A DNA stretch of 64,000 nt from an uncultured Chlamydiae bacterium. GTDB lineage: Bacteria; Chlamydiota; Chlamydiia; Chlamydiales; SM23-39. A program made the position numbers and the translations under genes. The stretch spans positions 480,001-544,000 of the forward strand of contig CAVSSM010000001.1 of NCBI GenBank assembly GCA_963730605.1, read 5' to 3'. The notes beneath the pieces are model-generated. The model saw only the letters and a program-made list of their open reading frames with translations. It searched no databases and was not told where the DNA came from. Shown here in pieces: positions 6,608 through 47,324 of the stretch (position 1 is the first letter of the stretch; each line of letters begins with the position of its first letter).

Positions 6608-6781
6608 ACTAACCCGGCATTCAAAGAGGTGGCAACAAATGGCTCGGCGAGGCAAAGCCAGATCGAAGCGAAGCGTTCCGCACGAGCGACGGCCATTGCT
6701 TGAAAAGCAAGGCGAGCGAGGAGGATCGATATGGCAAAGCCGCAGCAAGCCATTTGTCACCTATTTGGAGGACGGGTTAGT
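6608..6781. repeat. Palindromic MITE/RPE-like element
   Basis: IR ctaacccggcattcaaagaggtggcaacaaatggct / agccatttgtcacctatttggaggacgggttag. The core is homologous to 15566-15800 and a solo right end occurs at 46344-46377. Confidence 0.8.
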
Positions 6782-6783
6782 AT

Positions 6784-9369
6784 ATGGTTAAATCACTTCT
6801 TGGCGATCACCCGATTGGGAAACACCGCTTCTCAAACCTGGAGGCCGCTTTTAAGAAATTTGAAGCGTCCAAATTCCTAAGCTTAAGCGACCGGGCGCGG
6901 AGCGAACAGGTCAATGCGGCCCTTTGCGAACTCATTCAAAAAGAACCGGAGCCCTGCTTCCTTTTATACGCGGTTCTCGAATTCATAGAGCGTGTCGAGC
7001 GGGAAAAAATCTTAAGCCACTATACCTTCACTAGCTTTGAGCTTTGGCTGAACCAATTTTCCAACTTAAGCTTTGAGGAAAATGCCCGCATCCGCGGCAA
7101 AATCGCAGGGAAGTGGATTCCACGGGGAGAGTATCAAAGACTTTTTCCGATCGGGATGGGAAAAGTCTATGAAGGGACCCACTTTGTCACGGCGCACAAG
7201 TCTCCCGATCTCGATACGACCGTCGCTTCTTTTTGGGGCTGGGTCGACGCTTTTGCGGCCCGCGTCGGAGACGGCTTGCATATCTGGAACGTGCCCGGCG
7301 GCCCTCCTCCCCAAATTGAAATCGACCTCATTTTCCGAAAGGTTTTCGGCGACGCCGTATTTAGTCATTTGGCGAAAACTCGGACCGTTTTAAACCTGAC
7401 GGGCAACGACCTCATGACCCAGCAGGGGCTCATGCGGGTCGCCTTAGATGATTCGATCGCCTCGATCGACCATGATAGGAATAACAAAGCCGTTATCATC
7501 GTGGACGAGGGCGGTTTTTATCTCGGCGATTGGCGCAGTATCGATGTGGAAGGAGTTCGCCAAGTCATCATCCTCCTCAGCAGTTGCATCCGTTGGTTTG
7601 AAAATCATCTTCACCTCCGATTGATCTCTCTTTTTGCCAAGAAAGACCTCCGTTTGGAAATGGTAGCGCCTCAATTGAAGGCCCTCTTCGACCTGAACAT
7701 CAAGGAGTGCGAACCAGCTACGGGATTTTCTTTAAAAGAAAAAAAGAGCGTCCAAGATTTCATTCTCCTCGTTCTCGGACTCCAAGAAGGGCTGGAATCC
7801 ACGTTTGAGAATTTGAGCCGCCATCTCGCCCGGCTTGGAAAGATTCCCTTTGAGGGGATGGCCCAGATCCTCGATGAGATGAAACCCCTTTTCGATTCCA
7901 AGGGACATCTTGTGGAAGACAGGCCGAAAATTTTCATGTTTCTGGAAAGCGCGATCCATTACCTTCACGAAGAAATCATCAAGATCCGGGAAAGATTGGA
8001 AAGGCTCGATATCGCACTTCGGACAAAGACCGAAGTGTTTCAACACCTGCCGACTTTTGTGACTGTCCGGAGCGACGTCGAAGAAATCCGCAGCAAAATG
8101 GGCTCCTATCTTTCCTTAACCGTGGCATATCCTGACAAGGGAAAGTTCTTCCCTGTAGGGACGATCTATTCTTCCGATTTAAGAAAATCGACGCTCGGCA
8201 CAGTTTCCCTTCGCGATTTTTGCAATCCGGACGAAATGGGGATCCCCTCCTATCTCGAAGTGATCAGCGTGATCGACCACCACAAATCGACGCTGAGCAC
8301 GGTCACTGCCCCAATGGCAATGATTGCCGATGTCCAATCCTCAAACACCCTGGTCGCAAAGCTGGCTTTCGAAATCAATGACCGCTATAGCTTGGCTGGA
8401 CAATCGCCCTCGAAAATCAACGAAGAGATCCGCAAGGGCGCCGATTCCTCCCTCTCCCACAGGATCTTGTCCAGGCTCCTCTGCCGGCGGGAAGCGGCAG
8501 AGGCCAATTTGCCGTTCTACATCCATCCAGAGCGCGAGAGGATCGAGTATTTGCACTTTCTCTATGCGATCCTGGAGGATACCGATCTTTTGAGCAAGGT
8601 AAGCGCAGCCGATCTCGAATGCGTAGCAGCGCTTTTGAATCGCCTCAAGACTTTGGCCTTGAAGAAAGAGACGGAAATCATAGACCTCGGCGACCTGCCG
8701 CGCGATAAAAGTTTCTTGAAGAAGGGCGCTCAAAAGATTTTACAAAACGACGATATGTATTCCCTCTACAAGAAGGTCTACGCGTTTAAGGAAAAAGAGG
8801 TGGAGCGGAACCTCGAACTTGCAGCTTCTGGCAAATCTTCGGCCATTTTCGCAGATACAAAAGAGCAAAACGGCTGCTGCCGCGTCGGGCAAACAAAGGC
8901 ATTCGCGAACAATTTCCCTTTTTTTGCAAAACATGCGGATGCCATTCGGCGCGTCTGGCTCAATGCGGCGATGAGCGTATCCCTTGAAAAGCCGGCGATT
9001 GACCTCCACATCCACATGATCAGCACAATCGTGAGCGCAGAGGAAGTGCATCTTGGGAAAAGCGCATCCTACTCTCATAAAGATGAGCTGTGGATTTGGG
9101 TCCCGGAAGGAGATCTTCCTGTCGAGCATCTGAAAGGATTTTTGAATCACTTCAAAAATTCCCCAGGCTTAGAGAACAACTCTCTTGAAGTGGAATTCCT
9201 AGGGGCCAACGCCTCCGACCTTGCGCTTATTTTCAAAGAAAGCTTTTTCGATATTCCCCAGAAGTCAATGGATAGAAAATTGCCGATCGCGGTCCTTCGC
9301 TACAAAGCCGGCACGCTCAATTCACGAAAAGCAATGGTCTCCCCTTTCCTGCCGACGCTCTCTTCCTAA
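6784..9369 (+). CDS. Large DHH-superfamily phosphoesterase (family II pyrophosphatase-like motifs)
   Basis: AHKSPDLDT, IDHH, AILEDT and DTKE resemble PpaC motifs. The protein is 861 aa with large insertions. Confidence 0.65.
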   Translation: MVKSLLGDHPIGKHRFSNLEAAFKKFEASKFLSLSDRARSEQVNAALCELIQKEPEPCFLLYAVLEFIERVEREKILSHYTFTSFELWLNQFSNLSFEENARIRGKIAGKWIPRGEYQRLFPIGMGKVYEGTHFVTAHKSPDLDTTVASFWGWVDAFAARVGDGLHIWNVPGGPPPQIEIDLIFRKVFGDAVFSHLAKTRTVLNLTGNDLMTQQGLMRVALDDSIASIDHDRNNKAVIIVDEGGFYLGDWRSIDVEGVRQVIILLSSCIRWFENHLHLRLISLFAKKDLRLEMVAPQLKALFDLNIKECEPATGFSLKEKKSVQDFILLVLGLQEGLESTFENLSRHLARLGKIPFEGMAQILDEMKPLFDSKGHLVEDRPKIFMFLESAIHYLHEEIIKIRERLERLDIALRTKTEVFQHLPTFVTVRSDVEEIRSKMGSYLSLTVAYPDKGKFFPVGTIYSSDLRKSTLGTVSLRDFCNPDEMGIPSYLEVISVIDHHKSTLSTVTAPMAMIADVQSSNTLVAKLAFEINDRYSLAGQSPSKINEEIRKGADSSLSHRILSRLLCRREAAEANLPFYIHPERERIEYLHFLYAILEDTDLLSKVSAADLECVAALLNRLKTLALKKETEIIDLGDLPRDKSFLKKGAQKILQNDDMYSLYKKVYAFKEKEVERNLELAASGKSSAIFADTKEQNGCCRVGQTKAFANNFPFFAKHADAIRRVWLNAAMSVSLEKPAIDLHIHMISTIVSAEEVHLGKSASYSHKDELWIWVPEGDLPVEHLKGFLNHFKNSPGLENNSLEVEFLGANASDLALIFKESFFDIPQKSMDRKLPIAVLRYKAGTLNSRKAMVSPFLPTLSS

Positions 9370-9547
9370 GAGGGTGTCTACAATGTGAGGTTCTCTCGAT
9401 TTTTCGGTTCTTTTGAGCCGCTTTTCGATTCAAGACTTGGGGGGGCAATATCGACAACAGTATATGGCCCCCCCAAGCTTTGAAGTGGAAAAGCGGCCAA
9501 AATAATCCAAAAACTCGGGCGTTCCCCCACTTTGTAGACACCCTCTA
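9367..9547. repeat. Palindromic element, family B
   Basis: IR agagggtgtctacaa / ttgtagacaccctct. Related copies at 45824-45898 and 52521-52540. Confidence 0.85.
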
Positions 9548-9566
9548 AATCATCGAGGAAAATTTT

Positions 9567-9854
9567 TATACTGCGACCGTTCAAAAAGAGTGAAAAATGC
9601 CACTGCGGAATCCCAAAAAATGTCTGGGAGACATTTTTTGTGCGAAGCAGCGCCATGAATTTGAACCAGACGAAGTCGGCGCTGAAGCAGCTAAACTTGA
9701 AAAGTTTAGCGCCGGGGTCCCCGAAGACGCATCGTCTTTGGGGTGGGGTGCAGGTGGGTCTCAAATTCAGCGGCTGTCCGAGGGGTCCCCAAAGATGCAT
9801 CATCTTTGGGGTAGGGCGCCGGCAGATTCACACTTTTTGATCGGGAGCAGTATA
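9567..9854. repeat. Palindromic element, family A
   Basis: IR tatactgcgaccgttcaaaaagagtgaa / ttcacactttttgatcgggagcagtata. Near-identical copy at 52564-52810. Confidence 0.88.
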
Positions 9855-10006
9855 ATATGCTCTTTCCACAAAAACAGAACAGATTGCAGCTAAATTATTT
9901 GCATAAAACAAGGGTAGCATATTGAGAGATTTTTCGTATTATCGTCTTTTTTTGCTTTTTTAAGTTTGTGTGGTACAATGGTTGCATCTTTTAGGGGAAA
10001 AAACCA

Positions 10007-46325: not shown

Positions 46326-46387
46326 TATGCTATCCAAGAGCCCGCCATTTGTCACCTGTTTGAATAGCGGGGTAGTAAATAGAACCC

Positions 46388-46407
46388 CTCCCCCAATTCA
46401 GGGGGAG
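46388..46407. terminator. Hairpin between convergent genes
   Basis: ctccccc-aattca-gggggag. Confidence 0.45.
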
Positions 46408-46417
46408 CTTATAAAAA

Positions 46418-47023
46418 TTATGACTCTAAAACACTTAAGTGATTGATCCAATAGTTGCTGAACCCATCCATGTCTAGGCTTAACAAAATTGTATTATTGC
46501 CGTTGACAACGTATTTGGTAATATCGAATTTTTCACTGATGTAATTTCCATTATTTGGGTTATATCCTGCTTTCACAACTTTATCATTGACCTTGATGGT
46601 AATTTTAGCACCGGGCTTTCCGTCGACAAGGGAAGAGAGGTGATTTAGATCTAGCGTGTAAGCTTTAGAAGGGTCTTTCTCGATCGAAACATTTGTTGCG
46701 ATAGAGCTAATACCTACGAAATGCATCAGCCAGCTGTTCCCATAAAATTTGTTGTAATAAACCCCTGGCCCTGTTTTAACCGTTGCATTCGTATCGACAT
46801 GAGTTGCATTGCTAAAATCGACCTCAGCGATCTTCTTTGGAGCCGCTGGAGCTTTCAAAGCTACAGCCAATGTTTCAGCTGCCTTCATCCTGCGCATCGA
46901 TGCTCTAGATGACAAAGATACATCTGCATTGCCAACTACAGCCGCCATCAAAGCCGCAGGTTTTATCGATGGGAAGTCTTGAGAAATAGAAGGTACTTTT
47001 TCTAATGAATTAATTGTTGTCAT
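46418..47023 (-). CDS. AT-rich hypothetical protein with C-terminal beta-sandwich
   Basis: S/A-rich N-terminus, then ITIKVNDKVV and FDITKYVVNGNNTILL, which resemble galactose-binding-like jelly-roll domains. Confidence 0.65.
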   Translation of the reverse strand: MTTINSLEKVPSISQDFPSIKPAALMAAVVGNADVSLSSRASMRRMKAAETLAVALKAPAAPKKIAEVDFSNATHVDTNATVKTGPGVYYNKFYGNSWLMHFVGISSIATNVSIEKDPSKAYTLDLNHLSSLVDGKPGAKITIKVNDKVVKAGYNPNNGNYISEKFDITKYVVNGNNTILLSLDMDGFSNYWINHLSVLES

Positions 47024-47160
47024 GTTCAACACTCCTGTTTTTGAACAGTTGCATTTTACAATAACAACAAAATTAAAAGCAATTTTAAATAAAGCTATAA
47101 AACATTCTATAATTAAAATAAGTTGGAAAAAATTTAAGGGTCTAGTTTTTCTCTCTGTGA

Positions 47161-47324
47161 TATACCGAAACAACCTGAAGAATCGGGAATTTGACAAGGA
47201 GGCTCCTCAGAATTTGTGTTCGGAGCAAGCGACCATTGCGCGTGCGCAAGGCGCGAGTGAGAACAAAAATTCTGAGGTAAAGCCGACGCAGTCAAAAACC
47301 GATTCTTCAGGTTATTTCGGTATA
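47161..47324. repeat. Palindromic element, family C (164 bp)
   Basis: IR tataccgaaacaacctgaagaatcgg / ccgattcttcaggttatttcggtata. Inverted near-identical copy at 55554-55717. Confidence 0.9.

Follow-up and report, generated by a model that had tools for sequence, protein, structure and literature searches.

The 64,000-nucleotide stretch considered here (positions 480,001 to 544,000 of contig CAVSSM010000001.1 from an uncultured Chlamydiae bacterium; "the window" below means this whole stretch) contains four copies of a motif in which CCATT and AAGGC enclose a short stem-loop of variable sequence. What kind of element carries this motif, and on which molecule would selection for it act? An earlier note on this DNA placed the motif in three element types and proposed that a folded single strand is recognized by a protein such as an HUH nuclease or recombinase. 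The four copies that it described are present exactly, in position and in letters, as pattern matches:

6693-6713, plus strand: A-type motif, CCATT-GCTT-GAA-AAGC-AAGGC
15711-15731, plus strand: B-type motif, CCATT-CCC-GAATA-GGG-AAGGC
47233-47252, plus strand: C-type motif copy 1, CCATT-GCGC-GT-GCGC-AAGGC
55626-55645, minus strand: C-type motif copy 2, same letters as copy 1

In all element folds the motif forms the apex of a hairpin that spans the whole element, and the elements are flanked by TA and measure 164 to 236 nt. We read the carriers as MITEs (miniature transposable elements with inverted repeats). For the apical module itself, the reading that we tentatively prefer, with somewhat less than even confidence, is that the purine-rich strand folds as a single strand, probably of RNA, that serves as a protein-recognition hairpin. 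The molecule under selection would then be a single strand, with RNA weakly favored over single-stranded DNA (ssDNA), and a platform of bulged A and G.A pairs would be the surface that the protein binds. In the usual MITE the ends are conserved and the interior is filler; here this is reversed.

Anatomy and spread of the apical module

The module spans about 50 nt and can be written [G/C]-(bulged a)-CC-(bulged A)-TT-variable stem-loop-AA-GG-[C/G]. Within it, GG is the partner of CC and AA that of TT, leaving the A between CC and TT bulged. The base ahead of CC usually bulges as well, and the next pair outward is either G-C or C-G, depending on the family. Tandem G.A/A.G pairs, possible on the motif strand only, extend the helix outward into flanks of the form GAGCGA...GAGCGA or ACGAGTGA...ACGAGTGA. 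In the A type a small hairpin also branches off to the side, its loop being C-GAA-G, C-AAA-G, or similar.

The element types that the earlier note told apart are not independent of one another. Further unpaired islands are common to them, namely GCGAGGCAAAGCC on the 5' arm and GGCAAAGCCG(A)CGCAGC on the 3' arm, the latter giving an AAA/AAA internal loop; the C type has CAAGGAGGC as an additional island. Because these islands are shared, we regard the three types as homologous or modular relatives rather than as separate inventions. The elements and their modules in the window are as follows, with scores from R1, a covariance model of the 49-nt module:

6610-6779, plus strand: A-type fold-back MITE, TA...TA, ends TAACCCGG.../...CGGGTTA (sequence, inverted arms, fold)
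6679-6727, plus strand: A-type apical module, GAGCGA-cgG-CC-A-TT-GCTT-GAA-AAGC-AA-GG-C-GAGCGA (R1, 55.6 bits)
6668-6674, plus strand: GCGAAGC mini-hairpin with a C-GAA-G triloop, in the A-type 5' arm (sequence, alignment)
15566-15801, plus strand: B-type MITE, ends TATACCGCGCGCAGG.../...GCGTGGTATG, in frame within open reading frame (ORF) 14635-16098
15697-15745, plus strand: B-type apical module (R1, 53.9 bits; pattern match)
15635-15706, plus strand: nested 72-nt module directly 5' of the B-type apical hairpin (alignment)
47161-47324, plus strand: C-type MITE copy 1, 164 nt including TA flanks, ends TATACCGAAAC.../...TTTCGGTATA, with a minus-strand ORF on either side
47219-47266, plus strand: C-type copy 1 apical module, GCG-a-CC-A-TT-GCG-CGTG-CGC-AA-GG-CGC (pattern, fold, alignment)
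55554-55717, minus strand: C-type MITE copy 2, inverted; arms 26 nt, 92% complementary; 98% to copy 1 by BLAST
55612-55659, minus strand: C-type copy 2 apical module (pattern match, fold)

The A-type element starts 14 nt past tRNA-Arg(TCT) (6523-6595) and lies just upstream of ORF 6784-9369; in its relatives, the counterparts of the GCGAAGC mini-hairpin are other short hairpins whose stems covary. The bounds of the B-type element come from alignment to the orthologous site in a related genome, G003, and to a second copy in the present genome. The arms of C-type copy 1 are 27 nt long and 96% complementary. Contigs of soil DNA from four runs gave thin and piecemeal cover, and their lone joint inside C-type copy 2, at 55598-55675 with one contig and a side of 27, was too weak and was not used.

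How far the motif exceeds chance depends on whether its interior pairs. The bare pattern CCATT-N6-24-AAGGC is at background in the window, with seven matches against 4.8 expected (22 of 100 shuffles reach seven), and the interior is unpaired in three of the seven (at 30805, 51759, and 63162). The paired-interior form, defined by at least three interior pairs and N8-14, stands above its controls in the available genome (2.22 Mb in 12 contigs, 83% complete): there are 14 exact copies, whereas 899 permuted-pentamer controls average 1.85 and reach 10 at most, and all 14 fall within repeat elements. The flanks, described earlier as invariant, are so in the window; across the genome, relaxed searches return the variants ACATT, AAGGG, and AAGGA and a compensated CCATA...TAGGC, in which the stem-adjacent T-A pair is swapped to A-T.

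The earlier note had also drawn attention to C-GNA-G mini-hairpins, citing two. Both are present, each outside the CCATT module:

6292-6302, plus strand: CCGC-GAA-GCGG mini-hairpin, in another palindromic element (6150-6344)
27288-27300, plus strand: CCCAC-GAA-GTGGG mini-hairpin, in another palindromic element (27064-27340)

As a class these hairpins are not enriched, since C-GNA-G accounts for 360 of the 22,204 triloop hairpins with 4-bp stems in the genome (1.6%), which is its share of the 256 possible classes.

With 150 of 1214 candidates scored, R1 recognizes at least 33 places in the genome. The six C-type copies that the genome contains fell outside those 150 and were added by pattern search. 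R1 matches occur in 17 of 41 close genomes (this one included), in 13 of 24 from the same family, and in at least nine genera. A second model, R2, built from 49 hits, matches 23 genomes of a 150-genome sample of the phylum, which belong to families f1, f7, f23, f19, f22, f29, and f32; family f20, with 26 genomes in that sample, gives no match. Among taxonomic markers, Chlam_OMP6 and Chlam_PMP had no match, and a SufS look-up yielded no informative taxa. Across the phylum sample, a covarying fold with invariant bulges, specific to one strand, persists in at least seven families even as the ends bound by transposase change. The search model finds the family across genomes, and in the apex binding and transposition assays have a well-defined target that can be mutated.

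Covariation and strand asymmetry

The claim that the stems differ in sequence yet stay paired, with selection acting on a folded single strand, draws support from both covariation and a strand-asymmetric fold. In an alignment of 49 rows fitted to the model, 93.6% of cells are paired, compared with 77.8% in shuffles and 31 to 58% in slid controls, and six of nine pairs change on both sides (62 such cells). Pair 13-52 is GC in 22 rows and CG in 19, and TT/AA becomes TA/TA in three rows. Alignments made with MAFFT and RNAalifold, which are independent of covariance-model fitting, show compensation at 35 of 65 consensus pairs in the C type (8 sequences) and at 27 of 35 in the A type (16 sequences).

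Covariation alone cannot tell a folded strand from a DNA palindrome; the strand asymmetry, the conservation profile, and the reading phases do. Across 34 elements, symmetric internal loops hold 125 purine.purine oppositions (AG 52, GA 50, AA 20, GG 3) and five pyrimidine.pyrimidine oppositions (TC 3, CT 1, TT 1). In the same elements there are 58 G.T pairs against nine A.C pairs, and purines make up 86% of the unpaired bases (A 337, G 201, C 54, T 35). A hand count in the C-type and A-type alignment tables gives 62 GU against 18 AC. In 22 of 24 elements the purine-rich top strand has the stabler fold of the two strands, whether RNA or DNA parameters are used. Mean pairwise identity is 0.64 to 0.79 in the interior, compared with 0.46 to 0.60 at the ends, and the conserved interior consists of the apex plus two further loop islands.

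The reading frame in which CCATT falls differs by type: phase 0 in A and F, phase 1 in G and D, and phase 2 in B and H, with unrelated peptides. One family of elements, in genome G162, has 18 of its 19 copies between genes and retains the module. Because the module occurs in three phases and is kept in this intergenic family, a conserved peptide is not its cause. Within ORFs of at least 250 amino acids, the folding strand is nevertheless the sense strand in 15 of 20 copies in this genome and in six of six in genome G177.

As to which single strand is involved, RNA seems somewhat likelier than ssDNA, given the G.U excess, the A-rich loops, the sense orientation within genes, and the fact that we know of no single-stranded stage in IS630-type transposition. 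If the molecule is RNA, these elements would be a natural vehicle for spreading a structured RNA through genomes and into genes.

Several observations weigh against the RNA hairpin. Most of its loops are triloops or A-rich rather than of the GNRA or UNCG types typical of RNA, and the excess stability of the top strand, which holds with DNA parameters too, does not discriminate RNA from ssDNA. Between co-directional genes, a hand count (with C-type copy 2 placed by the ORF list of the window) finds the folding strand sense in 11 cases and antisense in 12, so many copies would not yield top-strand RNA by read-through. This random orientation suggests a role that is intrinsic to the element or exerted in trans, rather than in cis on neighboring genes; together with the high conservation of the interior, it fits an element-intrinsic role of DNA equally well. 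The bias toward the sense strand within genes could also stem from selection on the peptide, the sense inserts having grand average of hydropathy (GRAVY) values of -0.3 to -1.4. In the C-type copy, neither an inward promoter-like site nor a terminator was found. Rfam 15 at gathering scores recovers only tRNA in the window, and at E values up to 1 it returns only sub-threshold miRNA-precursor and plastid models at five element loci. Related elements whose ends are the same have a different apex or consist of two ends only, so the module is not obligatory for that end type. Finally, copies and relatives are non-independent and often multicopy, and all of the counts above overstate the number of events.

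A broader form of the RNA reading is possible, if unlikely: the interior of about 110 nt may be a mobile structured-RNA gene riding on interchangeable IS630 ends, with an apex, formed by two bulged adenines on a helix zippered by G.A pairs, that would dock a host or transposon protein in trans. Such a gene would be a riboregulator or a protein sponge spreading by transposition through environmental chlamydiae.

IS630-type ends and exchange of modules

The elements are small (164 to 236 nt), free of transposase, and multicopy, with 3 to 13 module-bearing copies per family. In the A and C types, terminal inverted repeats form arms of 26 to 32 nt that are 75 to 96% complementary, and the ends pair in the C-type consensus structure. 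TA borders both ends of the A-type and C-type copies, as it does in copies from relatives. The B-type copy is a true insertion within a gene: the G003 orthologue (87 to 93% identical) has the same element at the same site, and the G007 orthologue is without residues 304-388 of the query protein. This empty site is seen at the protein level only, and the TA flanks are a putative target-site duplication.

The genome has 29 DDE_3 (IS630) matches (for example, C1:117593-118018) in three groups, one of which comprises 14 identical copies of an IS630-type transposase gene, pointing to recent activity. The commonest insertion sequence (IS), IS_a, ends in TA followed by TACCGCTCG and in TA followed by TACCCAAGG; its two ends begin TA-TACCG and TA-TACCC. 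A G-type element end matches an IS_a end over 21 nt at 95%; no internal similarity was found between element interiors and resident IS copies. Carriers fall into at least two clearly distinct end classes, TA followed by TAC... and TA followed by ACCCG.... From the inverted ends, the TA flanks, and the IS630-like ends, the carriers are MITEs of the IS630 kind, and a resident IS with matching ends would be a candidate for mobilizing them.

The 72-nt module nested in the B-type element is missing from the same MITE at the orthologous site in G003, where query residues 334-357 are absent, so its arrival is recent, by insertion or by conversion from another copy. It has no inverted ends, runs from CTGCGGAAAC to GGCCCGTA with its own GAAGGTCC/GGACCTTC hairpin, and stands directly beside the apical hairpin. 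Elsewhere in the genome it occurs at C1:12816-12882, C7:23006-23086, C9:107303-107369, and about 20 more places, in the orientation of the CCATT module wherever the two adjoin.

G-type elements (C1:12687-13010 and C7:30700-31000) have the architecture of a C-type MITE with three nested small hairpin modules, which occupy unpaired loops of the large hairpin, one in the 5' loop, one next to the apex, and one in the 3' loop; a plain form, G2 (C2:172990-173160), is without the three. At 31537-31584 of the window lies a 48-nt perfect-type palindrome of two C-type ends alone, with no interior (TATACTCAAACAACCTGAAGAATC / GATTCTTCAGGTTGTTTCGGTATA), which we take for a minimal form of the element. Other elements of the genome (C3:30925-31130, C9:50715-50930, and C11:114250-114440) combine C-like ends and the CAAGGAGGC and CCGACGC islands with another apex (GATCAACTT-GAATA-AGTTGATC) or a nested 25-base hairpin. 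An alternative apex on the same ends and islands indicates that the CCATT module is exchangeable.

Alternative readings and known repeat families

The alternative that survives best, though we think it unlikely, is that the module folds as ssDNA, in a hairpin or cruciform arm, and is recognized by a transposition or replication protein, promoting the spread of the element; this is the proposal of the earlier note without its HUH detail. Selection at the level of the element is suggested by an interior conserved above the ends and by an orientation that is random relative to genes. C-GAA-G, C-AAA-G, and GCGAAGC mini-hairpins and tandem G.A pairs, all of them very stable in DNA, are present; the top strand is the stabler one in 22 of 24 elements with DNA parameters; and the nested small modules lie in loops only, always in the orientation of the motif. 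Against this, the TA flanks and IS630-like inverted ends point to double-stranded cut-and-paste, and elements with the same ends and another apex exist in several copies. Were ssDNA the selected form, IS630-type mini-transposons would have an undescribed single-stranded step.

The enzymes of the genome and its relatives also count against the ssDNA reading, and recognition by an HUH nuclease or recombinase is unsupported: the ends are of the IS630 type, and neither an intact HUH gene, nor co-occurrence, nor a replication-strand bias was found. For Y1_Tnp (HUH), the 83%-complete genome yielded no intact gene and a lone partial match of 24.8 bits, to a C-terminal fragment in front of a SIS-domain ORF (see below), the absence of an intact gene being unproven at that completeness. 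Among 40 relatives, Y1_Tnp occurs in 5 of 12 that bear the motif and in 14 of 28 without it, and DDE_3 in 4 of 12 and 9 of 28, respectively, a weak comparison because draft assemblies often lose IS copies. By these counts, presence of the motif goes with neither enzyme. Relative to GC skew, orientation is split 16 versus 14 (hand count on contigs C1, C2, and C7), which gives no replication-strand bias.

A quite improbable reading is that the module acts as double-stranded DNA (dsDNA), with mutation by template switching inside hairpins keeping the palindrome and the islands being predicted protein-binding or bending sites that join the ends of a 165- to 190-bp element. It is modeled on the possible role of the IHF site in Correia elements, for which excerpts of a review describe a proven central IHF site (PMC10969869). 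Both arms do carry the islands, as direct repeats (GAGCGA, GGCAAAGCC), and orientation is independent of genes and of replication. A dsDNA process should treat the two strands alike, yet G.T outnumbers A.C by 58 to 9 and purine.purine outnumbers pyrimidine.pyrimidine by 125 to 5, and the top strand is the stabler in 22 of 24 elements. Template switching, moreover, would erase mismatches rather than keep them across genera.

Coding constraint has a similarly low probability in our estimate. Here elements inside genes would often be translated, much as Rickettsia palindromic elements (RPEs) are, and the purine-rich loops and conserved bases would reflect selection for an open hydrophilic frame. 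The sense bias within long ORFs accords with this, as do the insert peptides, whose hydrophilicity exceeds that of the remaining protein in each of the 12 sense cases listed; open frames number 0.51 per element in sense and 0.86 in antisense, compared with 0.17 in shuffles. Yet the conserved bases fall in three phases by type and encode unrelated peptides, an open sense frame exists in only about half of the elements, the G162 family keeps the module almost wholly outside genes, and the frame is shifted across the apex by interiors that measure 9, 10, or 11 nt.

It is no likelier that the motif has no function and reflects common descent or modular exchange in young families, with covariation as a by-product of the palindrome: the elements are module-exchanging mosaics, many counts rest on near-identical copies, and relatives with another apex exist, but the module occurs in seven families of the phylum sample with differing ends and diverged stems, its interior is conserved above the ends, and mismatch positions and purine identity are conserved where neutral decay would randomize them. 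The inverted ends, the TA flanks, and the even orientation speak against an HUH-dependent single-strand element of the kind of the IS200/IS605 palindrome-associated transposable elements (PATEs) or REP/RAYT.

Folded single-strand recombination sites, namely integron attC sites, IS608 ends, and REP/RAYT, follow the same logic. In them structure counts over sequence, the variable stem has a few invariant bases at its sides, and one strand is marked by extrahelical bases. Neither inverted ends nor TA duplications occur in these systems, which require IntI or HUH enzymes, and the HUH link failed every test here. RUP of Streptococcus pneumoniae, mobilized by IS630-Spn1, resembles the chlamydial elements in being small and non-autonomous, with IS630-like ends and insertion at TA; unlike them, it has, to our knowledge, no conserved structured interior across end types. 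ERIC sequences, likewise imperfect palindromes (about 127 nt), have a conserved central core. They are likened here by description, and in excerpts of the review they affect transcripts via RNase E in an orientation-dependent way (PMC10969869), whereas the chlamydial elements have no orientation preference between co-directional genes (11 versus 12).

Correia elements (NEMIS) of Neisseria, as the same excerpts present them, are likewise MITEs flanked by TA whose ends are inverted and whose center has a functional feature, and their transcripts fold and are cut by RNase III (PMC10969869). Their central feature is a double-stranded IHF site, in contrast to the covarying bulged hairpin with tandem G.A pairs found here. 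RPEs, also from an intracellular bacterium, are hairpin repeats about 150 nt long, often in frame in genes and translated, and they insert in frame in many genes (PMC10969869); the B-type copy, in frame inside ORF 14635-16098, shares this trait. Likened by description, the chlamydial elements differ in their clear TA flanks, inverted ends, and a resident IS630 with matching ends, and in a strand-asymmetric core common to families with different ends, of which the excerpts on RPEs make no mention (PMC10969869).

Full-text searching found no paper on chlamydial MITEs or the CCATT motif. The review mentions chlamydiae zero times, and the main text of a MITE census preprint (10.1101/2024.01.18.576219) leaves chlamydial MITEs unmentioned, although its supplements might list such genomes.

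Three minor observations concern the surroundings. A C-terminal piece of an IS200-type HUH transposase lies at C2:395536-395697 (minus strand), fused in frame before a SIS-domain ORF of 287 amino acids (ORF 829-1692 of L079) that looks, by eye, like a phosphoheptose isomerase. The A copy has only one outward promoter-like site, at its right end: TTGTCA, 18 nt, and TAGTAT at 6754-6783 (plus strand), running across the A-type right end and its flank toward ORF 6784-9369; A-type relatives share a conserved TTGTCAC in the 3' arm. At 23240-26926 (minus strand), the window encodes a 1228-amino-acid Snf2-type helicase, with sub-threshold matches to the SCO1167-type helicase, ZorD, and DrmD models.

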